The position numbers were made by a program, and so were the translations under genes. A DNA stretch of 64,000 nucleotides from Dehalococcoidia bacterium (GTDB lineage Bacteria > Chloroflexota > Dehalococcoidia > UBA2979): positions 37,476 to 101,475 of the forward strand of contig JBFWSN010000005.1 in NCBI GenBank assembly GCA_050248355.1. Direction: 5' to 3'. Positions within the stretch are counted from its first letter, which is position 1. Every line of letters begins with the position of its first letter. Below the pieces are notes generated by a model, which made no database searches, was not told the origin of the DNA, and was given only the letters and a program-made list of their open reading frames with translations. Positions 1,924-33,455 of the stretch are shown here, one piece after another.

Positions 1924-4173
1924 CTAGGGGCCGCCCTCGGGCGGGTCGGGGGGCCCGCCCGGGCCGGGGCCGGCCGGAAGCTGCGCGCGCGGGCGGGGGA
2001 GACGAGGCCAGCGCGGACCCTCGGAGTCGACCGTGTCGGCGAGCGGTACGCCGCGACGGCTGGCCAGCTCTCGGGCGGTGGGCTCCGGGTACTGGACACG
2101 TGGGTGGTAGACGGAGTTCAGGATCGAAGAATAGACGTCCGTGACGACTCGCAGGTCGCGCATCGAGATGGGACTCTCGTCGAACTGCCCTTCCTCGAGC
2201 CGTTCGCGGATCACGGCCTCGACGATGCTGCGAATGCGGTCGGCGGAGCGGTCGGCGGAAGCGCGGACGGTCGCCTCGGCCGAATCGGCAAGCATGACGA
2301 GGGCGGTCTCGCGGGACTGCGGCTTCGGGCCGGGGTAACGGAACATTTCCGGGTCGATGTCGGGGTCGATCGAGGCGGCGCGACGGTAGAAGTACGTGAC
2401 CAGGCGTGTGCCGTGGTGCTGGGGGATGAACTGCACGACGGCGTCGGGCAGGCCCTCGCGGCGCGCGATCTCAACGCCCGCGGTGACGTGTTGCAGGATC
2501 ACGCGGGTGCTCTGGAGCGGGTCGAGCGGCTGGTGCGGGCTCTCCTCGCCGCTGTTCTCGATGAAGAACGGCGGCGCCACGAGCTTGCCGATGTCGTGGT
2601 AGTAGGACCCGATGCGGACCAACAGCGGGTCTGCGCCGATGCGTTCGGCGGCGCGCTCGGCGAGGTTGCCGACGAGGATCGAGTGCTGGAAGGTGCCCGG
2701 CGCCTCGTCCTGCAGACGCCGGAGGAGCGGATGGCTGAGCTGCGTGAGCTCCATCAATTCGACGCGGGTGATGATGCCGAACGGCCGGCTAAACAGCACG
2801 AACACTCCGACGGCGATGAGGGCGGCGAGAACCCCGCTGACGCCGACGGCAACCGCCATCCAGAGGAGGTCGAGACTTCCGCGTTCGACCTCGACGAGCC
2901 ACACCATGAGGAGCGCGGCGCCGGCGGCGGCGCCCGAGGCGAGCCCGGCGACCAGATAGCGGTGCAGCCGCTCGGCTCGGGCGGCGACGTACACGCCGGC
3001 GAGCGAAGAGGCGGAGACGGTCAGGGCCAGCCTCGCGGTCTCGATCTCGCCGGCCGCGACCCCATGGCTCAGCGGGAGCATCACGGACGCGAACGCGGCG
3101 ATGACCGCGAGGAGCACCGAGAGCAGGATGCCGAGTCCGACATCGAGGAGGACGGCGGCAGCCATGGGCGCCGCGGCGACCGGCAGCGCGTACGCCACGA
3201 AATGGCGGTCCTGGTCGGGGAGCAGGACGGAGAGCGCAAGCTTCATCGCGAAGGCAGGCAGCACCAGCAACAGCACGAGCAGCGTCACGCGGCGCGCGCT
3301 CGCGAGCGATGCGGGCTGGGTGACGAGGACGTAGCCACCCACCGCGGTGCCCGCGACGGCAGCCAGGAGGGCGACGGCGAGGACGTCACTCACGCGGACA
3401 CCATCGACCTGTAACCCGGCCTCCTCGAGGAGTTCGATGTCGGCGGCGGTGAGCTGCTGGCCCTCGGTGACAAGGACATCGCCTCGCGCGCGGCTGACAT
3501 GCACGGGGGGCGTGCTCTGCCGGGCCTCGGCCCGGAGCGCGTTCGTGCGTGCGGAGTCCACGACAAGCGTCGAGACGATGTGCCCCGAGAGCAGCTCCGT
3601 GAGGGCCGAGATCTGGGCGGGTGACAGGAACGGCGAGAGGAAGCCCGAGACCTGTTCCCGCGCCAGGGGGAGGTCTCGCTCCTGGAGCGTGCCGGCTAGC
3701 GCGCGGCCCAGGGCGGCGGTGGCCTCGGTGACCATGGTGTCCCACTCGGCGGCAGTCGCGGAGGCGAACGTCGCCGCGGCGGATGGAGAGAGTTCGACAT
3801 CCCGGACGGCGCGTATGGCGCTCTCACGCGCGGAGGCCGCGAGGCCGGGCTCATCACGGATGCCGCGGATGGCGGACAGCTGGCTGTCGAGGAGCGTGAG
3901 CTGGCGGTCGCGGACCGTGGGGTCGAGGACGAAGACATCGGGGACGGCCGCCGCGGCCTCGGCGCGCACCTGCTCGGTGCGGATGGCGGAGTCGAATGAC
4001 AGCGCGCGAGGCGAGGTGAGCGTCCAGGGCGCGCGATCCCCCTCGGTCACATCGGTGCCGAGCGGGTACCACGGGAACACCGCCACCAGCACTCCAACGG
4101 CCACGATGAAGCCGAGGAAGAGGCTCGCGCCGCTGGAGAAACGGAAGGCCGGGGCAGGCGGGCGGGCTAGCAT
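1924..4173 (-). CDS. 7TM receptor with intracellular HD hydrolase (PgpH/YqfF-like HD phosphohydrolase, candidate c-di-AMP phosphodiesterase)
   Basis: 749 aa: N-terminal extracellular region, a multi-TM hydrophobic core, and a C-terminal HD domain (YYHDIGKL...HHG). Bacillus-like synteny with yqeY and rpsU. Confidence 0.85.
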   Translation of the reverse strand: MLARPPAPAFRFSSGASLFLGFIVAVGVLVAVFPWYPLGTDVTEGDRAPWTLTSPRALSFDSAIRTEQVRAEAAAAVPDVFVLDPTVRDRQLTLLDSQLSAIRGIRDEPGLAASARESAIRAVRDVELSPSAAATFASATAAEWDTMVTEATAALGRALAGTLQERDLPLAREQVSGFLSPFLSPAQISALTELLSGHIVSTLVVDSARTNALRAEARQSTPPVHVSRARGDVLVTEGQQLTAADIELLEEAGLQVDGVRVSDVLAVALLAAVAGTAVGGYVLVTQPASLASARRVTLLVLLLVLPAFAMKLALSVLLPDQDRHFVAYALPVAAAPMAAAVLLDVGLGILLSVLLAVIAAFASVMLPLSHGVAAGEIETARLALTVSASSLAGVYVAARAERLHRYLVAGLASGAAAGAALLMVWLVEVERGSLDLLWMAVAVGVSGVLAALIAVGVFVLFSRPFGIITRVELMELTQLSHPLLRRLQDEAPGTFQHSILVGNLAERAAERIGADPLLVRIGSYYHDIGKLVAPPFFIENSGEESPHQPLDPLQSTRVILQHVTAGVEIARREGLPDAVVQFIPQHHGTRLVTYFYRRAASIDPDIDPEMFRYPGPKPQSRETALVMLADSAEATVRASADRSADRIRSIVEAVIRERLEEGQFDESPISMRDLRVVTDVYSSILNSVYHPRVQYPEPTARELASRRGVPLADTVDSEGPRWPRLPRPRAQLPAGPGPGGPPDPPEGGP

Positions 4174-4201
4174 GAGCGGGTGCGCCGCGGACGCCGGGGA
4201 G

Positions 4202-4654
4202 TCATGTAGAAGAGGCTAGCATCTCCCGAACCAGGGCGTTGACTCGACCGCCCTCGGCGCGCCCCGCGACGCGTTTCATGAGCGGGCCCATTACCTTGCC
4301 GAGGTCGCCCGGACCGACGGCACCAGCCTCGGTGATCGCCTCGCGCACGAGGGTCTCGAGCTCCTCGTCCGTGAGGTCGGCCGGGAGATAGGAGGCGATG
4401 ATCGCGAGCTCCGCCTCCTCGTGGTCAACGAGGTCCTGCCGGCCGCCCGCGTGGTACTGCTCAATGGAGTCACGACGCTGGCGGGCCTCCCGCTGGAGTG
4501 CAGCGACGGCCTCCTGATCCGTGAGGTCGTGGCCGGCGGCGATGCGAGCGTAGTCGAGGGCAGCGATCAGCAGCCGGAGCGTGTCGCGCCGGCTGGCGTC
4601 CCCGGCGCGCCAGGCGGCGGTCATGTCATCCCGGATGGTCTGCACGAGTGGCAT
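4202..4654 (-). CDS. GatB/YqeY domain protein
   Basis: Start at the internal MPLVQTIRDDMTAAWRAGD. YqeY-like helical protein immediately upstream (minus strand) of rpsU, as in Bacillus. Confidence 0.8.
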   Translation of the reverse strand: MPLVQTIRDDMTAAWRAGDASRRDTLRLLIAALDYARIAAGHDLTDQEAVAALQREARQRRDSIEQYHAGGRQDLVDHEEAELAIIASYLPADLTDEELETLVREAITEAGAVGPGDLGKVMGPLMKRVAGRAEGGRVNALVREMLASST

Positions 4655-4702
4655 CGACGGGCCTCGAGAAAGCAGAACCCCGGCTGCGCCGGGGTCCACC
4701 AG

Positions 4703-4909
4703 TTAGCGCTGGCGCGCGGCCTGCGTGCGGATGGCCTTGCGCAGCTTGCGGATGCGGGCGGCTTCCTTCTTCTTGCGGCGTACGGAAGGCTTCTCGTAGT
4801 ACTCGTGCCGCCGGGCATCCGAGAGGATGCCATCCGCCTGGACGCGCTTGTTGAAGCGCTTGAGGGCGGACTCCAGGGATTCCATGTCTCCGACTTGAAC
4901 TTCGCTCAC
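4703..4909 (-). CDS. rpsU: 30S ribosomal protein S21
   Basis: [58 protein letters not shown] start at 4909 preceded by GGAGGAG. Confidence 0.85.
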
Positions 4910-22933: not shown

Positions 22934-23371
22934 CTACACGACCTCGATCGGCTCCTCGATGACGTGGGGAGTCTCGCGGACGATGCGCCAGGCGCGGACA
23001 GACGGCGGCTCCTCCGCCAGCGACACGAGGATGTAATAGGCCTCCGGGTACATGAAGAGGCCGCTCTCGATCTCGCCGGGAGGGAAGAATGCCTGGCGGA
23101 TGTCGGTCATCGAGGGACGCGCCTCGGACGCGACGTGGGAGTGGTAGATCGCGAACAGCTGCTCGCCAGACTCGTCGCGCTGCCGCTCCAGGCGGGCCAC
23201 TTCGAGGCCGTCCATCTCGTAGCGGTACGGGCTGGCAGTGGTGTTCTTGACGCGGTGGACGGCGATCGGGACGCCATCGCGTGAATGGACCATGCCGCAG
23301 GCCTCATTGGGGAGATCGTCCCGGGCGTGGGCGACCATCTCGTCGATCAGGGCGCGAGGAATGCGCGGCAT
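22934..23371 (-). CDS. JAMM/MPN+ metalloprotease (Mec+-like, CysO/MoaD C-terminal peptidase)
   Basis: JAMM motif E...HSHVASEARPSMTD. Start at the internal MPRIPRALIDEM with a GGGAG SD. Sits in the sulfur-carrier island. Confidence 0.8.
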   Translation of the reverse strand: MPRIPRALIDEMVAHARDDLPNEACGMVHSRDGVPIAVHRVKNTTASPYRYEMDGLEVARLERQRDESGEQLFAIYHSHVASEARPSMTDIRQAFFPPGEIESGLFMYPEAYYILVSLAEEPPSVRAWRIVRETPHVIEEPIEVV

Positions 23372-23449
23372 CGTGACTCCCGAGTCGTGCGCGGCCATGT
23401 GGGCTCGATTGTGCGGCGCGGGAGCGCTGCTCGCCACGGTCTGCGGGCG

Positions 23450-23923
23450 TCAGGTGTCCCGACAGGCGTCGTGCGCAGATGGCCAGGGCTCGGCGTTGTC
23501 GAGCACCTCGAAGCAGTCGTCCGAGATCGGAACCTGGACGATGACGATCTCGGGGCCGGACCTGGTCGTGCCCCGGCCGAGCACGACGCCCTCCGCGGGT
23601 ACGCCCGTGCAGAGGCCTTCCGACGTGAGCGTGACTCCGTCCGGTGGCCGGCACTCGGCGGGGGGGACGAAGCCGACTGACGCGGCGTACTTCGAGGGGA
23701 TGACCTCGATGCGGAACATGCGGAACCCTGAACTCGTGCGGTAGGTGGCATAGACCAGCGCCGAGGAACCATCGGCGGATGGCTCGCCCGGCGTACCAGC
23801 GATCACCTCGGGAGTGACGGCCGAGGGACTGCGATCGGGGGTGGTGAACGAGAGACCGGCGGCGAAGGCTGCGAGGAGGATGAACAACCCCAGGCCGACG
23901 ACGACGACCGCGCCCGGCTTCAT
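23450..23923 (-). CDS. membrane-anchored secreted protein with 4 conserved Cys, unknown function (paralog A)
   Basis: 157 aa. N-terminal TM/signal anchor and a conserved core ADGSSALVY...YAASVGFVPPAECRPPDG...IVIVQVPI..CF.VL....WPS..D.CR shared with the adjacent paralog. Confidence 0.5.
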   Translation of the reverse strand: MKPGAVVVVGLGLFILLAAFAAGLSFTTPDRSPSAVTPEVIAGTPGEPSADGSSALVYATYRTSSGFRMFRIEVIPSKYAASVGFVPPAECRPPDGVTLTSEGLCTGVPAEGVVLGRGTTRSGPEIVIVQVPISDDCFEVLDNAEPWPSAHDACRDT

Positions 23924-24079
23924 CGGCTATCCCTCACAGGATCCTTTTCCCGCCCACGTACAGAGGCCGCCCGTCGGTCATGCCGGCGGGGTGCGGCATC
24001 CTCATCCGGGCGGTGGCGTGTAGCGATGCCGGCTCGATTGTCAGGTGCCAGAGCGCTGGTCGCCACGACTCCGGGCGAG

Positions 24080-24550
24080 TCAGGACTCGCGGCAGCCGTC
24101 GAGCTCGGAGGGCCAGCGGTCGCCCTCCTTCAGTACGTCGAAACAGCGCGCGAAGATCGGAACCTGCACGATGACCAGGGCGTGACCGGAACTCAGCGTA
24201 CCGCTTCCGACGACCTCGCCGGCGGCGGGGATCCTGGCGCACGGCCCCTCGGCGAGGAGCGCTGCGTCCTGATCAGGGAGGCAGCCGGCGGGCGGCACGA
24301 AGCCGACGGAGGCAGCGTAGTCCGCCGCGACCAGCTGGAGGCCGAACAGGCGAAGCCCGGCGTTGGTGCGAAGCGTGCCATACACGAGCGCCGAGGAGCC
24401 ATCGGCAGGCGGTTCGGCCGGGCCATCGACGGCCGTGGCGGGTCCGCTTCCAGACGAGGTCTCAGTGCCGGTTACGGTGACGCCCGCGGCGAGCAGCCCA
24501 CCGATGACCACCACCACCAGCCCGACGACGATGATCGCCCCGGACTTCAT
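24080..24550 (-). CDS. membrane-anchored secreted protein with 4 conserved Cys, unknown function (paralog B)
   Basis: Start at the internal MKSGAIIVVG, also 157 aa. About 45% identical to paralog A over the whole length, with the same four Cys. Confidence 0.5.
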   Translation of the reverse strand: MKSGAIIVVGLVVVVIGGLLAAGVTVTGTETSSGSGPATAVDGPAEPPADGSSALVYGTLRTNAGLRLFGLQLVAADYAASVGFVPPAGCLPDQDAALLAEGPCARIPAAGEVVGSGTLSSGHALVIVQVPIFARCFDVLKEGDRWPSELDGCRES

Positions 24551-24575: not shown

Positions 24576-24962
24576 TCACGTCCACTGCTGCGCTTCGCCG
24601 TCGTCGATGCAGGCCGCGCCCGCAAGGCGCATGCGGAGAAAGTTGAAGCTGGCGGGCTCGATCACCAGATGCTCGACCCAGTGGGCGCGCTCGGCCTCGG
24701 GGAGACGATCGATGAGGTCCTCGAACGGCACTTGCACCTCGGTGTCCTCGGCGGCGATGCCGACATCGAGCGACCATCTGCCCGGGAACGACACGCGGCC
24801 GACGGTGCGCGTGCGGATGAGACTCGCGCCTCGCTCGCGGTAGCGGTCCATGACGGAGGCCTGGAAGCGGAGAATCAGGCGGCCCGAGTCCTTCGACGCG
24901 AAGGCGCGGGTCAGCAGCAGACGCTGCAGCGCCGCGGTGACGGCCGCCTGGTCCTCATCCAT
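24576..24962 (-). CDS. hypothetical protein
   Basis: 128-aa ORF with balanced composition, same strand as its neighbours. No motif recognised. Confidence 0.4.
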   Translation of the reverse strand: MDEDQAAVTAALQRLLLTRAFASKDSGRLILRFQASVMDRYRERGASLIRTRTVGRVSFPGRWSLDVGIAAEDTEVQVPFEDLIDRLPEAERAHWVEHLVIEPASFNFLRMRLAGAACIDDGEAQQWT

Positions 24963-24984: not shown

Positions 24985-25809
24985 CTACTTCTCGACGGGA
25001 ACGCCGATCAGCGAGCCATACTCGGTCCAGGAGCCATCGTAGTTCTTCACATCGCTGTAGCCGAGGATGTGCTTCAGCACGAACCAGGTGTGCGACGAGC
25101 GCTCACCAATGCGGCAGTAGGCGATGGTAGGCGTGCCCTCCTGGACGCCCGCATCCCCGTAGAGGGTCTTGAGGTCCTCGGGCGACCTGAACGTGCCGTC
25201 CTCATTGACGGCGCGCGCCCAGGGAATGTTCTTCGCGCCGGGGATGTGGCCGGCGCGCTGCGCGGTCTCCGTCATGCCGGGTGGGGCGATGATCTCGCCG
25301 TTGTACTCGGCCGGGCTACGGACATCGACGAGCTGGCTCGCGGCGCCGCCGACGGCCTGCAGCACCTCGTCGCGCTGGGCGCGCAGGGCCGGATTCGCGT
25401 CCTTCGCGGCGTAGCTCGTGGTCGGGTAGCTCGGTACGTCGGTAGTCGTGGGGCGGCTGTCGGCCATCCACTTCAGCCGGCCGCCGTCCATGAGCGAAGC
25501 ATGCTCGTGGCCGTACAGCTCGAGGAGCCACAACGCGTACGCAGCGAACCAGTTGTTGTTGTCGCCGTAAAGCACGACGTGCGTGTCGTTGTTGATGCCC
25601 GAGGCGCTCAACAGCTCCTCGAGGCCAGCCTTCGAGATGATGTCGCGCTGGACCTGGTCCTGGAGCTGCGTGGTCCAGTTCCAGCCCACGGCGCCCTCGA
25701 TGTGGCCCGTGCCGTACGCCTCAGTGTCGACGTCGACCTCGACGAGGCGCACGTTGGGGTCCCCGCTGTGCTCGGCGACCCAGTCAACGGTGACGAGTTT
25801 GTCGGTCAT
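24985..25809 (-). CDS. thiosulfate / 3-mercaptopyruvate sulfurtransferase (tandem rhodanese domains)
   Basis: Two rhodanese domains with active-site CRIGERS in the second. Strong SD AGGAGGAAG. Confidence 0.85.
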   Translation of the reverse strand: MTDKLVTVDWVAEHSGDPNVRLVEVDVDTEAYGTGHIEGAVGWNWTTQLQDQVQRDIISKAGLEELLSASGINNDTHVVLYGDNNNWFAAYALWLLELYGHEHASLMDGGRLKWMADSRPTTTDVPSYPTTSYAAKDANPALRAQRDEVLQAVGGAASQLVDVRSPAEYNGEIIAPPGMTETAQRAGHIPGAKNIPWARAVNEDGTFRSPEDLKTLYGDAGVQEGTPTIAYCRIGERSSHTWFVLKHILGYSDVKNYDGSWTEYGSLIGVPVEK

Positions 25810-25928: not shown

Positions 25929-26864
25929 TTACCACCACAGCTTGGTGCCGACGTCCTCCTCGATGTTGTCGTAATCCTGGGTCCAGAGGCCGGACGAAAG
26001 GTACTTCCAGCCGCCGTCCGCGAGGAGACAGACGATGTGACCCTCGTCCATGCGCTCGGCCACCTTCTGGGCGGCGCGGACGGCCGCGCCGCTCGAGATG
26101 CCGGCGAAGACGCCGGCCTTCGCGGTCAACTCGCGCGTCGTACGGAACGACGTGCGGGAGTCAACGACGATGCGGCCGTCGAGGACGGACTCATCCAGGA
26201 CGGGCGGGATGTAACCCTCCTCGAGGCTGCGCAGCCCCTGCACGAGGTCGCCTGGATGGGGCGCGGCAGCGACGATGCGCACGTTCGGGTTGTGCTCCTT
26301 GAGCCGGCGGCCGACCCCGGTGAGGGTGCCGCCGGTGCCGAGGCCGGCGACGAAGACGTCGACTTCGGGGCAGTCGGCGATGATCTCCGGTGCTGTGGTC
26401 TCGTAGTGGGCACGCGGGTTGTCGCGATTTTCGTACTGGAACGGCATGAACCAGTCCGGGTGCTCGGCGTGGACCTGCCGCGCCATCTCGACGGACCCGT
26501 TGGTGCCGAGGTCGCCGGGGGAGTAGATGATCTCGGCGCCGAACGCGCGCAGGATCTCGACACGCTCCGGGCTGACGGCGTCCGGCATGACCACCTTCAC
26601 GGGGTAGCCTCGGAGCTGGCCGATCATGGCCAGGGCGATACCGGTGTTGCCGGACGTGGGCTCTAGGATGGTCTGGCCGGGACGCAGCCGCCCCTCGCGC
26701 TCCGCGGACTCGACCATGTACTTCGCGATCCGGTCCTTGACCGAGCCGGTGGGGTTCTGGCCCTCGAGCTTCACGTAGATGTGCACGGAGGGCTTCGGCG
26801 AGAGCACAGCGACCTCGACGAGCGGCGTGTTGCCGACCATGTCGAGCATGCTGCGGTAGAGCAT
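25929..26864 (-). CDS. cysM: cysteine synthase B-like (CysM, likely CysO-thiocarboxylate dependent)
   Basis: PLP fold type II: GNTPLVE...[10 protein letters not shown]...TSGNTG...GLGTGGT. Start at the internal MLYRSMLDMVGNTPLV. Lies 10 nt after the cysO stop. Confidence 0.85.
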   Translation of the reverse strand: MLYRSMLDMVGNTPLVEVAVLSPKPSVHIYVKLEGQNPTGSVKDRIAKYMVESAEREGRLRPGQTILEPTSGNTGIALAMIGQLRGYPVKVVMPDAVSPERVEILRAFGAEIIYSPGDLGTNGSVEMARQVHAEHPDWFMPFQYENRDNPRAHYETTAPEIIADCPEVDVFVAGLGTGGTLTGVGRRLKEHNPNVRIVAAAPHPGDLVQGLRSLEEGYIPPVLDESVLDGRIVVDSRTSFRTTRELTAKAGVFAGISSGAAVRAAQKVAERMDEGHIVCLLADGGWKYLSSGLWTQDYDNIEEDVGTKLWW

Positions 26865-26874
26865 CGGGTGCGTC

Positions 26875-27150
26875 CTAGCCGCCAGCGAGGGCGGGCAGGA
26901 TGGAGACCTGGTCGCCGTCCTTGAGCGCCGTGTCCGCGCCGCCGAGGTAGCGGATGTCCTCGTCATTCAGGTAGATGTTCACGAAGCGGTGGAGCTGTCC
27001 GGAGCCGTCCATGATCTGCGAGCGAAAGCCGGGGTAGCGGCGCTCGATGTCCTCAATGAGCTCGGCGACCGTCGAGCCGTCGGCGGCGAACTGACGCTGA
27101 CCGTCGACGGCCTTTTGAATCACTGACGTGACATGCACCTGCACCGACAA
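26875..27150 (-). CDS. cysO: sulfur carrier protein CysO/MoaD/ThiS family (beta-grasp, C-terminal GG)
   Basis: ...IEDIERRYPGFRSQIMDGSGQLHRFVNIYLNDEDIRYLGGADTALKDGDQVSILPALAGG*. Start is uncertain: TTG at 27150 or GTG at 27144 follows an AGAGGGGG SD. Confidence 0.75.
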   Translation of the reverse strand: MSVQVHVTSVIQKAVDGQRQFAADGSTVAELIEDIERRYPGFRSQIMDGSGQLHRFVNIYLNDEDIRYLGGADTALKDGDQVSILPALAGG

Positions 27151-27237: not shown

Positions 27238-28398
27238 CTAGTGGTGGGCGGCCCCCGTCGCGCCGGGCGCGACGAGCGGGGGCGAGCCGCAGAACTGGTC
27301 GTAATCGATGAGCTCCGTGACCGTCGGGTGGTCGCCGCAGAGCGGGCACTCCGGGTCACGGCGCAGCTTCATGGTGCGGAACTCCATCGTCAACGCGTCG
27401 ACGAGGAGGAGGCGCCCGACGAGGGGCTGGCCGATATCGAGCACCTGCTTGAACACCTCGGTGGCCTGGATCGAGCCGATGATGCCGGTGATCGCGCCCA
27501 GGACGCCGGCCTCTGCGCAGGACGGCACGAGGCCGGGGGGCGGCGGCGTCGGGTAGAGGCAGCGGTAGCAGCCCTGACCGGGCTTGAAGACGGTCGCCTG
27601 GCCGTCGAAGAGCAGGATGGAGCCATCGACGAGCGTCTTGCCGAGCAGGTAGCAGGCGTCGTTCACGAGGTAGCGCGTGGCGAAATTGTCCGCGCCGTTC
27701 ACGACGTAGTCGTAGTCGCGGATGATCTCCATCGCGTTGTCCGAGGTGATGGGGGCCTCATGCTGGCGCACGGTGACATGCGGGTTGTAGGCGTTCAGCG
27801 TCTCGACGGCGGACTGCATCTTCGTCTTGCCGACATCCTCGGTCTGGTGGAGCAGCTGCCGCTGGAGGTTCGAGAGGTCGACGGTGTCGAACTCGACGAT
27901 GCCGACCGTGCCCACGCCGGCGAGCGCAAGGTAGATCGCGACGGGAGAGCCGAGACCGCCCGCGCCGACGATGAGGACCTTCGCGTTGCGGAGCTTGCGC
28001 TGCCCGGTGGGCCCGACCTGGCCCATGATGATGTGCCGCGAGTAGCGCATGACTTCGTCGGGCGAGAGGGCGGCCGGGTTGCCGGCCGGCGTGTGCCCAT
28101 TCGTGGCGCCGTCGGCGTCCGGGGCGCCGCCCGCGAGCGCGGGGATGACCGCGACCTGGTCACCGTCGGCGACCGTGGTGTCCGTGCCGGAGAGGTCGTG
28201 AATTTCCTGGTTGTTCACGTAGATGTTGATGTGCGCCGGGATGGTGCGCTCGCGGTCGTAGACAAGGTTGCCGAAGCCCGGGTAGCGCTCGTCGACGGCG
28301 TCGAGCACTTCGGCGACGTTGCGGCCCTCGACCGACACATACTCATGGTTCTGCGTCAGACGCCGGAATGGCGAGGGGATGTAGACGCTCACGGCCAT
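27238..28398 (-). CDS. MoaD/CysO-like beta-grasp domain fused to an E1-like ThiF/MoeB adenylyltransferase
   Basis: Residues 1-91 form a MoaD-like domain ending ..VAVIPALAGG. A linker and the ThiF/MoeB domain follow (VLIVGAGGLGSPVAIYLALAGVG, catalytic CYRC, zinc CxxC at ECPLCG). Confidence 0.85.
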   Translation of the reverse strand: MAVSVYIPSPFRRLTQNHEYVSVEGRNVAEVLDAVDERYPGFGNLVYDRERTIPAHINIYVNNQEIHDLSGTDTTVADGDQVAVIPALAGGAPDADGATNGHTPAGNPAALSPDEVMRYSRHIIMGQVGPTGQRKLRNAKVLIVGAGGLGSPVAIYLALAGVGTVGIVEFDTVDLSNLQRQLLHQTEDVGKTKMQSAVETLNAYNPHVTVRQHEAPITSDNAMEIIRDYDYVVNGADNFATRYLVNDACYLLGKTLVDGSILLFDGQATVFKPGQGCYRCLYPTPPPPGLVPSCAEAGVLGAITGIIGSIQATEVFKQVLDIGQPLVGRLLLVDALTMEFRTMKLRRDPECPLCGDHPTVTELIDYDQFCGSPPLVAPGATGAAHH

Positions 28399-28433: not shown

Positions 28434-29372
28434 TTACAGCGCCACGCTGAGGTAGCGCTCGCCGGTATCACACAACATGGTGACGACGCGCTTGCCGGGC
28501 CCGAGGGCTTCGGCGACCTGGATTGCCGCCCAGACGTTTGCGCCGGAAGAGATGCCGACGAGCAGGCCTTCCTCGCGCGCGAGGCGCTTGGTCATCGCGT
28601 AGGCATCTTCGTCGCCCACGCTGATGATCTCGTCATACACCTCGCGGTTCAACACGCCCGGGACGAAGGAGGCGCCGATGCCCTGGATGCCATGCAGGCC
28701 GGCGCGACCGCCCTGGAGCACCGGCGCGCGGGCGGGCTCGACGGCCACGATGCGCGCGGGGACGCGCGCGTTGCGCAGCACTTCGCCTACGCCGGTGATG
28801 GTGCCGCCGGTACCGACCCCCGCGACGAAGGCGTCGAGCCGACCCTGGGTGGCCTCGACGATCTCGGGGCCGGTGGTGCGCCGGTGGATCTCGGGGTTGG
28901 CCGGATTGTCGAACTGCTGCGGCATGAAGTAGCCGCGCTCACGGGCCAGCTCCTGCGCCGTGAAGACGGCTCCAGTCATGCCCTCGATGGCCGGTGTCAG
29001 GATCAGCTCGGCGCCGAAGCGCTCGAGCAGACGACGGCGCTCGATGCTCATGTCCTCCGGCATGGTGAGGATCAGCCGGTAGCCCTTGCGGGCGCACACC
29101 ATGGCGAGGCCGATGCCGGTATTGCCGGAGGTCGGCTCGACGAGGGTGTCGCCGGGCTGGATACGGCCGGCGCGTTCCGCCTCCTCGATCATCGAGAGGG
29201 CAATGCGGTCCTTCACGGAGCCGGCCGGGTTGCGCGCCTCGAGCTTGCCGAGGACCTCGACGCCAGCCGGGGCGATGCGGCTCAGGCGCACGAGCGGCGT
29301 CGCCCCGATCAGCTCGAGGACGGAGTCCGCGATGAGCGGGGTCGCGAGGGGGTGCGCCTCCGGGACGGTCAT
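28434..29372 (-). CDS. cysK: cysteine synthase A (O-acetylserine sulfhydrylase)
   Basis: IGATPLV...[13 protein letters not shown]...[10 protein letters not shown]...GVGTGGT. Start at the internal MTVPEAHPL (cat at 29370-29372). Confidence 0.9.
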
Positions 29373-29388: not shown

Positions 29389-29832
29389 TCAGATCGAGTA
29401 GCTCGCGACGGCGGAGCGCAGGCGCTCGCGCTCGCGGGCGGCCAGGTCAGCCAGCGACACGGCGGCAAGCCGCGCGCGCATGTCATCGTAGATTTCGCGC
29501 CAGACCCACTGCTGGGCGCAGACGGAATGCGGCTCTCCGGAGTCGTCATCCTCGAGGCAGGGCATCGGGGCGAGCGAGCCTTCGAGGCTCTCGAGGACGT
29601 GCAGCAGACAGATCTCCTCGGGCGGCCGGGTGAGCTGATGGCCGCCGCCCGGGCCACGGGTGCTGCGCACGAACCCGTCACGGCGAAGCTGCGCGAGCAG
29701 GTGGTCGAGGTAGGACTCGGGGATGTGCTGACGGCGGGCGATCTCGGTGCGCTGCACCGGACCTTCGCTGCCGTACATGGCGAGGTCGATCAGCGCGCGC
29801 ACGCCGTAATCGCCCTTGGTACCGATGTGCAT
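29389..29832 (-). CDS. Rrf2 family transcriptional regulator (CymR/IscR-like)
   Basis: Start at the internal [18 protein letters not shown], the Rrf2 N-terminal wHTH. It lies directly downstream (same strand) of cysK and neighbours a second winged-helix gene on the other side, consistent with Cys-metabolism regulation. Confidence 0.8.
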
Positions 29833-30379: not shown

Positions 30380-31303
30380 TCAGTTCACCGACAGCGGTCC
30401 CGAGTCGTAGACCACGAAACGCACGTTCCCGGAGGGGAATGTGATTGCGACGTGATGGTCATTCGAGGGCGTTGTCCGCGCGGTCGCGCTGACCACCGCG
30501 CCGAGGTCGCCGTGACACGTCACCTCGATCGTCAGCGTACGTGTGGGCGTCAGGATGTCCTCGTACACGACCGTCCCAGTCTTGTCCGCTTCTTCTGACC
30601 GGTACTTGAACTTGAATGCCTGCACTGAACCGCCGCCATTAATGCCATCCGGCGGATCCCCGGGGCCCCACCTGTTCCCATCGGGCGGGTCCTTCGACCG
30701 CAGCTGGAACGACCGGTTCGTGTAGTTTTCGAGGGCAATGACGCAATGATTGAACGTAGTGTCGATGAACAGCTCGGCTTCGGTGAAGTCGTCCGCCAGT
30801 GACCCGACTTCGGCGAGACCGAGATCTTGCAGCGAACCGGGCAACTCCTCCAGTAGGTCGGCATCGAACGTCATGGTCGCGGCGGAGGGGTCGTACGTTG
30901 GGTTGGTGAGTTCGAGCGGCAGGGTGACGCGCGAGTTGCCGGCGGTCGTCGCCACCAGCGCCGCATTCGGAGGCGGAATGTCCGCCTCCCAGACGTCGGA
31001 CAGCATCCGCGCAGGATCCATGGTGCCCGCATCTCGCTCGGGCCGGTCGCTGAAGTACGTACTTCGAGGCGCAACGTCACGCAACTCCAGCGTGAAGGTC
31101 CCGTCTCCGAGGTCGCGCAGCGTCCCCCCACTCGCCGTCTGCACGAAGAGGTAGCTCCCGGGGGAGGCCGACGCCTCGGCGGTCGCCGCAGCCGGCTCGC
31201 CGTCTCCGAGGCCAAACGGGTTGGCAAGATACGTGACCAGCAACAGCCCCACCGCGACCAGCAGCAGCGCGGAGGGCAGCAGCCATCGAGCGTTAGCGCG
31301 CAT
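30380..31303 (-). CDS. secreted hypothetical protein (N-terminal signal/TM)
   Basis: 307 aa with an N-terminal hydrophobic segment (MRANARWLLPSALLLVAVGLLLVTYLA) and a balanced soluble domain. No recognised motif. Confidence 0.5.
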   Translation of the reverse strand: MRANARWLLPSALLLVAVGLLLVTYLANPFGLGDGEPAAATAEASASPGSYLFVQTASGGTLRDLGDGTFTLELRDVAPRSTYFSDRPERDAGTMDPARMLSDVWEADIPPPNAALVATTAGNSRVTLPLELTNPTYDPSAATMTFDADLLEELPGSLQDLGLAEVGSLADDFTEAELFIDTTFNHCVIALENYTNRSFQLRSKDPPDGNRWGPGDPPDGINGGGSVQAFKFKYRSEEADKTGTVVYEDILTPTRTLTIEVTCHGDLGAVVSATARTTPSNDHHVAITFPSGNVRFVVYDSGPLSVN

Positions 31304-31817: not shown

Positions 31818-32605
31818 CCTCCCAGGGCCGGGTGGTCCCAGTCCGGTTCCCGCTTCTCGAGAAACGCGCGCTTGCCCTCGATGAGGTCGGTGGAGACGGC
31901 GGAGTGCTCCACGATCTCGCGCCAGGCGACATCGAGCGCTTCGTCCAGCGGCAGGTGTTTCGTCTGCCAGAGGACGCGCGTCGCGCGCTGTACGCCCTGC
32001 GGTGACTTCGAAGCGATGATCTCCGCATAGCGGTGAGCGATTGGCATCAGCTCGGCTGCCGGTACGACCTCGGTCACGAGGCCGGCGGCAAGGGCGGTCC
32101 GCGCGTCCGTGCGGTCGCTGAGACCGAGCAGGATCATGCGCATGACCGCCATCGGCGGCAGGCGGCGGGCGTAGATCATCGGCTCCTCGAGCGGGACCAT
32201 GCCGCGGTCGACGTGGGGGTCGAAGAACGTCGCATGGTCGGCGGCGATCGCGAGCTCGCACTCGCCGATCCAGTAGGCGGCGCCGCCAGCCGCGAGGCCG
32301 TTCACGGCGACGATCACGGGCTTGTAGCACTCGTTGCCCTTCGCGGTCATGCGCGCGATCCAGGGCCGCGTGACCAGCGGATCGCCGTCGGGCGTCGCGG
32401 CGACATCGACCCCCGAGGAGAAGGCGCGGTGACCCGCCCCGGTCAGGATTGCGACGCGCACCGCCGGGTCGTCACGCACCTCGGACCAGGCGCGGCTGAG
32501 CTCGAACGACATCTGTTCGTTGAAGGCGTTCAAGCGCTCGGGGCGGTTGAGCGTGATCGTGGCGACGTGGCCGTCCCGCTCAAAGCGAATTGTCTCGAAG
32601 TCCAT
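31814..32605 (-). CDS. enoyl-CoA hydratase/isomerase (crotonase) family protein
   Basis: ITLNRPERLNAF...VAILTGAG.AFSSGVD...PVIVAVNGLAAGGA crotonase fold. Confidence 0.85.
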   Translation of the reverse strand: MDFETIRFERDGHVATITLNRPERLNAFNEQMSFELSRAWSEVRDDPAVRVAILTGAGHRAFSSGVDVAATPDGDPLVTRPWIARMTAKGNECYKPVIVAVNGLAAGGAAYWIGECELAIAADHATFFDPHVDRGMVPLEEPMIYARRLPPMAVMRMILLGLSDRTDARTALAAGLVTEVVPAAELMPIAHRYAEIIASKSPQGVQRATRVLWQTKHLPLDEALDVAWREIVEHSAVSTDLIEGKRAFLEKREPDWDHPALGG

Positions 32606-32898
32606 CGCGCACCTCCTCCGGCCCGGCGGGCAGGGATGCTAGCACGACGGCGACGCGTACTGACGGGGGGAAGGTAAGAGCGACCCGGGGTGGGCCGCTC
32701 TTGTCGTGCGCTCCGGAATCCTCGTTGGCCGCGAGCCAGGCCGAAGCCGCGGGGCGCGATGATGTTGCGCTGGATGCCACCGCGCCGCGTGGGCGCGAGT
32801 AGCGCGCTCGCCGCGCCCGTGATCTTCGCCAGTCTGTCGCGTTGGCGCGGCCGTGCGCGCAGTTCGCGTAGTCCGCGTGGTCCTTGTGCCGGCGGAGC

Positions 32899-33174
32899 CT
32901 ACCCGCCCGCCACAGCAGGGACGATGGAGACCTCGTCGCCCTCCTTAAGGGCGCTGTCGAGGCCGCTCAGGAAGCGCACGTCCTCGCCGTTCACGTACAC
33001 GTTGACGAAGCGGCGCAACGAGCCGGAGTCGTCGCACAGGCGCTCGCGCATGCCCGGAAACTCGGTCTCGAGGTGCTGAACGAGCTCACCGAGGGTCGCG
33101 CCCTGGCCGGGTACCGTGTCGCGGTCGCCGGTGAGCGTGCGCAGCGGGGTGGGGATCTTCACGTTGATGGGCAT
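32899..33174 (-). CDS. MoaD/ThiS-family sulfur carrier protein (MetO-like), C-terminal GG
   Basis: Start at the internal MPINVKIPTPLRTL...FVNVYVNGEDVRFLSGLDSALKEGDEVSIVPAVAGG*. Last gene of the operon with the ThrC-like enzyme. Confidence 0.75.
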   Translation of the reverse strand: MPINVKIPTPLRTLTGDRDTVPGQGATLGELVQHLETEFPGMRERLCDDSGSLRRFVNVYVNGEDVRFLSGLDSALKEGDEVSIVPAVAGG

Positions 33175-33209
33175 CGGTCTGCAGTCTCCGTCCGTTCGCT
33201 GATTGGGGG

Positions 33210-33455
33210 TTAACCCTCGACGACGTCGCCGAGGAGCGGGTCGACTCGTACGCCTTTGGCCTCGGCCCAATGGATGCCGCGCTCGATCTCCTCCGGCTCG
33301 CCCTCGAGCTCGAGGACGACCCAGCCGACCTGCTCGTCGACATCCGCCATCCGGATGTTGGTAACGATGCGGAACTCGTGGCCGAGCTGGTAGATGAACG
33401 GCTCCCGGATAAGCTGCGGCTCAAAGGTGAAGCGGACGCGCTTCGTGGCCATCAT
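33210..33455 (-). CDS. small NIL/ferredoxin-fold-like protein (81 aa)
   Basis: MMATKRVRFTFEPQLIREPFIYQLGHEFRIVTNIRMADVDEQVGWVVLELEGEPEEIERGIHWAEAKGVRVDPL. Its start overlaps the ThrC-like stop (ATGA), implying translational coupling. Confidence 0.5.
   Translation of the reverse strand: MMATKRVRFTFEPQLIREPFIYQLGHEFRIVTNIRMADVDEQVGWVVLELEGEPEEIERGIHWAEAKGVRVDPLLGDVVEG

Follow-up and report, generated by a model that had tools for sequence, protein, structure and literature searches.

A tandem pair of predicted membrane-anchored four-cysteine proteins encoded in a sulfur-carrier operon of a Dehalococcoidia bacterium

We find that two adjacent genes of a Dehalococcoidia bacterium, here called A and B, are tandem paralogues that lie within a cysteine/folate operon and belong to a family of small proteins with a conserved four-cysteine domain. 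The explanation that best accounts for all observations jointly, and to which we give a probability of about 0.6, is that the pair represents a tandem-duplicated, outward-facing and membrane-tethered four-cysteine barrel, carried as accessory cargo in the operon and serving a binding or structural role in the envelope. According to this explanation, one gene was duplicated in place together with the leader and the beginning of the JAB gene that follows it, and both copies were retained. Each copy would keep a short positive N-terminus in the cytoplasm and use one hydrophobic helix as its anchor, from which an acidic, Pro/Thr/Ser-rich linker would project a compact beta-barrel of about 105 aa outside. 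Genes of the family otherwise occur one at a time in many unrelated neighbourhoods; in one Dehalococcoidia clade, the operon that runs from Rrf2 to FolK would have received a copy, as accessory cargo, in a slot whose content varies. A and B are probably co-transcribed with this operon, but they probably take no part in the sulfur-carrier pathway, which is cytoplasmic. As a default reading, they would most likely act, on the envelope side, as modules stabilised by disulfides and with a binding or structural role.

The two open reading frames lie on the same strand of the window, by which we mean the whole 64-kb stretch of DNA that was analysed (Table 1). Their products align over the full length with 48% identity (BLASTP, E 1e-43), which is far beyond chance and agrees with the preliminary description of the locus, where they had been called tandem paralogues. 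Both had been given there as 157-aa proteins; this is correct for A, whereas B has 156 aa when read from the orthologue-supported start codon. The mechanical open reading frame of B extends to a TTG at 24625, and the ATG at 24550 was chosen, as the orthologues start with MKSGA. The shared core motif quoted for the pair proved essentially right, apart from its element 'C.P.D', which does not hold, and from the string IVIVQVPI, found in A but replaced by LVIVQVPI in B. The database entries identical to A and B (P0001 and P0007) are both annotated as 'hypothetical protein' and come from one Dehalococcoidia MAG. A six-frame search of the whole window with the family profile found no third copy, and a scan for promoters and terminators around A and B gave nothing useful.

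Table 1. Coordinates of the genes and features discussed, in the window and, for other contents of the slot between hyp127 and JAB, in other loci
Feature	Sequence	Position	Strand	Remarks
Rrf2	window	29392-29832	minus	
CysK	window	28437-29372	minus	
ThiS-ThiF fusion (E1)	window	27238-28398	minus	
ThiS/MoaD-type carrier (CysO)	window	26878-27144	minus	
CysK/M-type enzyme (CysM)	window	25932-26864	minus	
Two-domain rhodanese	window	24985..25809	minus	PF00581, E 5e-32, two stretches
128-aa conserved hypothetical (hyp127/hyp128)	window	24576..24962	minus	88 homologues
Gene B	window	24080..24550	minus	156-aa paralogue adjoining the 128-aa hypothetical gene; identical to P0007
Gene B, residues about 49-156, four-cysteine ectodomain	window	24083..24406	minus	from alignments
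Relic of JAB leader and first JAB codons in the B-to-A spacer (duplication scar)	window	23972..24077	minus	local alignment
Gene A	window	23450..23923	minus	157-aa predicted bitopic protein, paralogue adjoining JAB; identical to NCBI MAG protein P0001
Gene A, residues 4-23, predicted N-terminal transmembrane helix (signal anchor or uncleaved signal peptide)	window	23855..23914	minus	AlphaFold2 helix; hydropathy 2.73; net charge +2 before, -2 after
Gene A, residues 50-157, predicted four-cysteine beta-barrel ectodomain	window	23453..23776	minus	strands 55-64, 78-85, 112-119, 125-133; C91, C105, C137, C154
Authentic A-to-JAB leader and JAB start (ATG at 23371)	window	23341..23449	minus	JAB orthologue aligns from 23371
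JAB/JAMM (Mec+-like)	window	22934..23371	minus	PF14464 (Prok-JAB), E 6e-20; 95% identical to 146-aa L003 orthologue
ORF resembling DUF559-type endonuclease by eye (slot cargo)	L036	about 4400-4890		
ORF resembling DUF559-type endonuclease by eye (slot cargo)	L050	about 3810-4420		
482-aa ORF without Pfam match (slot cargo)	L016	7194-8642		also in L017
Another ORF (slot cargo)	L059	about 4343-4889		

Membrane segment and ectodomain

The best 19-residue window of A and B has a mean Kyte-Doolittle hydropathy of 2.7-3.0, and among 61 aligned relatives the corresponding value averages 2.75 with a minimum of 2.08. On average, the residues that precede the helix have a net charge of +1.5 and the 25 residues that follow it one of -2.5, and the segment before the helix is the more positive one in 61/61 relatives. 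This charge distribution predicts an N-in, C-out orientation; with a single N-terminal hydrophobic helix and the more positive side at the N-terminus, the proteins are predicted to be bitopic and of type II, in line with the earlier proposal of an N-terminal membrane anchor with the domain outside. They are not lipoproteins, as no sampled member has a cysteine before residue 84 and a lipobox is therefore lacking. Helix and ectodomain are joined by an acidic, predicted disordered linker of some 25-30 residues, in which Pro, Thr, Ser and Glu are frequent and which has low confidence in the AlphaFold2 model.

Alternatively, the N-terminal segment could be a cleavable Sec signal peptide, in which case the four-cysteine domain would be released as a soluble secreted protein. 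Cleavage would be consistent with the short positive start of A, with the roughly 15 hydrophobic residues of its core and with AFA|AG as a site at residues 19-23, as well as with the disorder of the linker that follows, but the A-x-A site is kept neither in B (LLA|AG) nor across the family. Furthermore, the hydrophobic stretch as a whole spans about 20 residues and is modelled as one continuous helix, and the small residues of this helix (G10, A21, A22 and G23) are invariant in the close clade. We consider cleavage unlikely, while granting it an appreciable chance, and favor the membrane-tethered form; a secreted form, if real, leaves the main picture unchanged.

A and B contain exactly four cysteines each. 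In the alignment of 61 relatives, C91, C105, G116, C137 and W147 (numbering of A) are invariant, while G71, G112, G118, G123, V129, P148 and C154 are conserved in at least 90%, and 60/61 members have exactly four cysteines, so that the conservation of the four cysteines suggested from the two sequences extends to the family. Structure prediction of the soluble domain had been proposed as a check, and it gives a confident beta-barrel: the AlphaFold2 model of A built from the 61-sequence alignment has a mean pLDDT of 86.7 and a pTM of 0.70, with pLDDT above 90 over residues ~50-157, a domain of about 105 aa. In addition to the strands listed in Table 1, a helix (135-140) and a few short strands are modelled. 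This model supersedes an earlier one made from 10 sequences, for which the pLDDT was 70.5.

The two halves of the ectodomain resemble each other. In a profile-profile comparison, the N-terminal half (50-106) aligns with the C-terminal half (107-157) with an hhalign probability of 72% and an E-value of 3.3e-5; the alignment pairs C91 with C137 and C105 with C154, and in one relative (P0218) the motif DC...GDxWP....C is found in both halves. The barrel seems to be made of two copies of one unit, a beta-hairpin with a cysteine-closed loop, and we infer two putative disulfides, C91-C105 and C137-C154. The cysteine loops hold the most conserved motifs of the family, FVPPxGC and GDxWPSxxxxC, and the two loops would probably form the functional face.

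Distribution of the family and its place in the operon

The family is larger than the pair suggests. Word-index searches with A and B returned only about 10 clusters, whereas an exhaustive profile search finds 136 cluster representatives at E <=1e-3 and 63 at <=1e-10, nearly all of 150-165 aa (the clusters, about 136, are defined at 50% identity), and the reading of A and B as orphans is therefore rejected. Two long repeat proteins with marginal profile matches, the FG-GAP protein P0228 and the FMN_bind repeat protein P0233, are false positives. The few named members come almost all from Dehalococcoidia/Chloroflexota MAGs, with one labelled Fimbriimonadia, and a profile scan of genome contigs with the A1 alignment found one species representative. 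The cluster of the Fimbriimonadia-labelled protein includes P0238 (L011 8001-8465), which lies among hypothetical genes and adjoins genes for a DDE transposase, PrgI, TraC and TraG-like conjugation proteins, a setting that may point to the family being transferred horizontally on occasion.

That no known domain could be recognised in A and B continues to hold now that a profile assignment has been looked for. For A and B, neither Pfam nor NCBIfam yields a match at E <=0.1, and no Pfam model matches any of the 61 relatives at E up to 0.01; among the same relatives NCBIfam yields no credible match, the one case being a member whose match to a DamX model (E 0.0097) barely passes the cut-off for reporting. 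PHROGs and PADLOC contain no match to the family, sequence and profile searches of the PDB return only non-significant matches (E 0.2-0.9), and fold searches of the PDB nothing significant. The family is thus covered by no curated library and is an ordinary 'hypothetical' family that can now be better described. Its signature (four cysteines, the WP motif and the internal repeat) together with the confident model suffices to seed a domain-of-unknown-function entry, and the family definition can help to direct structural studies of the Dehalococcoidia envelope, about which little is known.

In the window, the genes of the operon are, in the direction of transcription, Rrf2, CysK, ThiS-ThiF, CysO, CysM, rhodanese, hyp128, B, A and JAB, followed by FolP, FolK and an NYN-domain protein. 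A and B had been placed between the JAMM protease and the rhodanese of a sulfur-carrier island, and the Pfam matches of the flanking genes (PF14464 and PF00581) bear this out; the rhodanese resembles 3-mercaptopyruvate sulfurtransferase, below the cut-off of that family. The gaps are short, with 25 nt from hyp128 to B and about 78 nt from A to JAB, and relatives with as little as about 43% identity (P0099) still have the gene in this slot. As the position is kept so far and the gaps are short, co-transcription is plausible, and some clade-specific functional coupling of A/B to the operon is conceivable. Compared with L003, which together with L007 is one of two related MAG contigs with an orthologous A/B pair, B is 85% and A 89% identical, most of the neighbours are 94-98% identical, and only FolK and a 295-aa hypothetical protein (both 87%) fall in the same range as A and B. 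The lower conservation of A and B fits faster-evolving, surface-exposed accessory proteins.

Several further features of this region were observed. The E1 consists of an N-terminal ThiS/MoaD-like domain and a ThiF/MoeB domain without a C-terminal rhodanese, and the separate two-domain rhodanese is encoded downstream. A second sulfur-carrier set is found upstream (window 32902-33452, minus strand; L003 1-1388; L004 813-2665), with a PLP enzyme of 418-425 aa, an 80-aa NIL-domain protein and a 91-aa ThiS-type carrier, and may represent a thiocarboxylate-dependent homocysteine or methionine route. At 30380-31303 (minus strand), in a 1.2-kb stretch between a MarR-like gene and a 97-aa hypothetical gene, the window has a 307-aa ORF with an N-terminal hydrophobic segment where L003 has about 290 nt; this ORF looks like another lineage-specific envelope protein. 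An acyl-CoA dehydrogenase gene lies between ThiS and enoyl-CoA hydratase in L003 (1470-2699) and just upstream of the hydratase in L001; no tblastn match to it was found in the window at an E cut-off of 1e-8, and the gap there (32605-32902) measures about 300 nt.

How closely the family is tied to the sulfur-carrier island was assessed in 50 metagenomic loci, retrieved with a profile of the 128-aa protein and scanned with profiles of the A/B family, hyp127, JAB and rhodanese. Both hyp127 and JAB are present in 43 of the 50 loci, in nearly all of them in the order rhodanese, hyp127, JAB. An A/B-type gene is found in one of these 43 (L065, a near-identical relative) and is missing from 42. Three longer contigs from other Dehalococcoidia (L004-L006) keep all other genes of the operon, and in these hyp127 abuts JAB. 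Insertions recur between hyp127 and JAB, and other loci have other cargo in this slot (Table 1). In about ten neighbourhoods of the wider family that were inspected, six more distant members lie in unrelated settings, namely with HpaB/HAD/Rieske genes (L008), GT2/radical SAM/CofC genes (L009, L010), a conjugative element with transposase and type IV secretion genes (L011), thioesterase/hydrolase/luciferase-like genes (L012), MerR/glyoxalase/thioesterase genes (L014) and ACPS/YjeF genes (L015). Co-occurrence with CysO/Mec+ systems, which the preliminary description had put forward as a check, thus does not extend beyond one clade, and as the linkage is confined in this way, the neighbourhood says little about the function of A and B.

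Within that clade, A and B could still form an extracytoplasmic arm of the cysteine pathway that uses the sulfur carrier, with the Rrf2 repressor regulating them together with CysO, CysM and JAB and the four cysteines serving, for example, to capture or reduce external thiosulfate or polysulfide, or to sense envelope thiol oxidation. The location of the pair on the same strand with short gaps within the operon speaks for this, as do the retention of the position in relatives to 43% identity, the purifying selection on both copies described below, and the fact that the four cysteines are invariant or nearly so. On the other hand, the gene is missing from nearly all of the related islands surveyed and also from L004-L006, the more distant members never adjoin sulfur genes, and the domain is predicted to lie outside the membrane while all of its putative partners are cytoplasmic. 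The spacings of the cysteines, 13-20 and 16-17 residues, are not those of CxxC-like redox motifs, and the operon itself includes the unrelated FolP, FolK and NYN genes and has a slot that takes other cargo. We find such an arm improbable. We likewise regard as a long shot, and quite speculative, the idea that the ectodomain is a new pseudo-symmetric barrel fold, built by duplication of a hairpin and a disulfide loop, that was recruited in this clade and then duplicated as the outward partner of the thiocarboxylate route to cysteine under Rrf2 control, where it might, for instance, sense or bind oxidised sulfur compounds at the surface or respond to thiol stress in the envelope. A direct role of A/B as a component of the CysO/CysM/Mec+ pathway is not supported, as the family does not generally co-occur with the carrier, the E1 and JAB in the islands surveyed and the domain is predicted to lie outside the cytoplasm in 61/61 cases. 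We favor the reading of A and B as accessory cargo, and point out that their place in a sulfur-carrier operon should not be taken as their function.

The gene next to B deserves more attention in this respect. It had been listed as a third hypothetical gene and is real and conserved, with further copies at, for instance, L001 9598-9981 and L004 8001-8384. Its product has an invariant C-I-D-D-G motif near the C-terminus and invariant W63, W95 and W127; it lacks a membrane segment, and searches of Pfam, NCBIfam and the PDB gave no match to it. This 127-128-aa protein is the constant unknown of the operon. It is a better candidate than A/B for a new component of CysO-type cysteine synthesis, and a better target for the study of this route in Chloroflexota.

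Duplication in place and coding status

The spacer between B and A records how the pair arose. Directly downstream of the B stop codon, about 105 nt align with the stretch that follows the A stop codon, which comprises the JAB leader and the first JAB codons, including the JAB GATGCCGC start. The alignment score in the window is 35, against a mean of 9.8 for shuffled sequences (sd 1.6, z 15), and L003 carries the same relic of the JAB leader (z 24). As this relic lies in the B-to-A spacer, the duplicated unit consisted of the gene together with the leader and 5' end of JAB, and was copied in place. A and B are thus the product of a tandem duplication on the spot, which predates the split of the lineage of the window from L003 and L007. 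The number of copies in the hyp127-to-JAB slot is zero in L004-L006, one in L001, L002, L016, L017, L065 and the contig of P0099, and two in the window, L003 and L007. In a neighbour-joining tree, which carries no support values, the B clade falls outside a group formed by A and all single-copy forms; either B was lost in the single-copy genomes, or B is the faster-evolving copy.

Comparison of A and B with their orthologues in L003 and L007 (dS for A/B 0.45-0.6) gives dN/dS values of 0.12 (A) and 0.18-0.19 (B), which show both to be real genes under purifying selection. Although DNA with the 69% GC of the window yields many long spurious ORFs (58 are listed in 9 kb) and the ribosome-binding site of B is weak, it is hardly credible that A and B are chance open frames or decaying pseudogenes, a reading refuted by these dN/dS values, by the constant length of the proteins across the 136 representatives, by the confident AlphaFold2 fold and by the invariant cysteines and tryptophan.

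Comparison with known systems

Several known families of envelope and redox proteins were considered as relatives of the ectodomain. A thioredoxin-fold oxidoreductase of the DsbA, TlpA or ResA type is rejected by the missing CxxC spacing, the all-beta model and the absence of a Pfam match. The lysozyme inhibitors MliC, PliC and PliI are rejected as well, since no true member of the family has a Pfam match; PliI was matched only by the false-positive P0228. DUF2500/YhhM (PDB 3q6c) is also a small beta-barrel, with a sequence identity to the A/B family of 12%, but membership is rejected, as none of the 61 members matches PF10694 or another Pfam model. To our knowledge, DUF2500/YhhM does not share the conserved cysteine pattern of the family. 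Small pseudo-symmetric six-stranded beta-barrels of the RIFT type are found in riboflavin synthase, in the FAD-binding domain of ferredoxin reductases and siderophore-interacting proteins, in the N-terminal domain of the F1-ATPase and in domain II of translation factors (PMC11258233). The RIFT-type barrel is among the closest known folds that we considered for the ectodomain, with no significant match in the fold searches of the PDB.

With regard to the operon, the closest comparison is the protein-thiocarboxylate cysteine pathway of mycobacteria. We know of no membrane-anchored four-cysteine component in the CysO/CysM/Mec+ pathway as described, and mycobacterial MoeZR has a rhodanese domain of its own. 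In Mycobacterium tuberculosis, the CysO/CysM/Mec+ pathway is encoded by a mec-cysO-cysM operon and works with MoeZR (PMC3227635, PMC8280819). Like that system, the window encodes a ThiS/MoaD-type carrier, a CysK/CysM-type PLP enzyme, a ThiF/MoeZ-type E1, a JAB protease and a rhodanese function; unlike it, the window has an E1 with an N-terminal ThiS domain and supplies the rhodanese as a separate protein.
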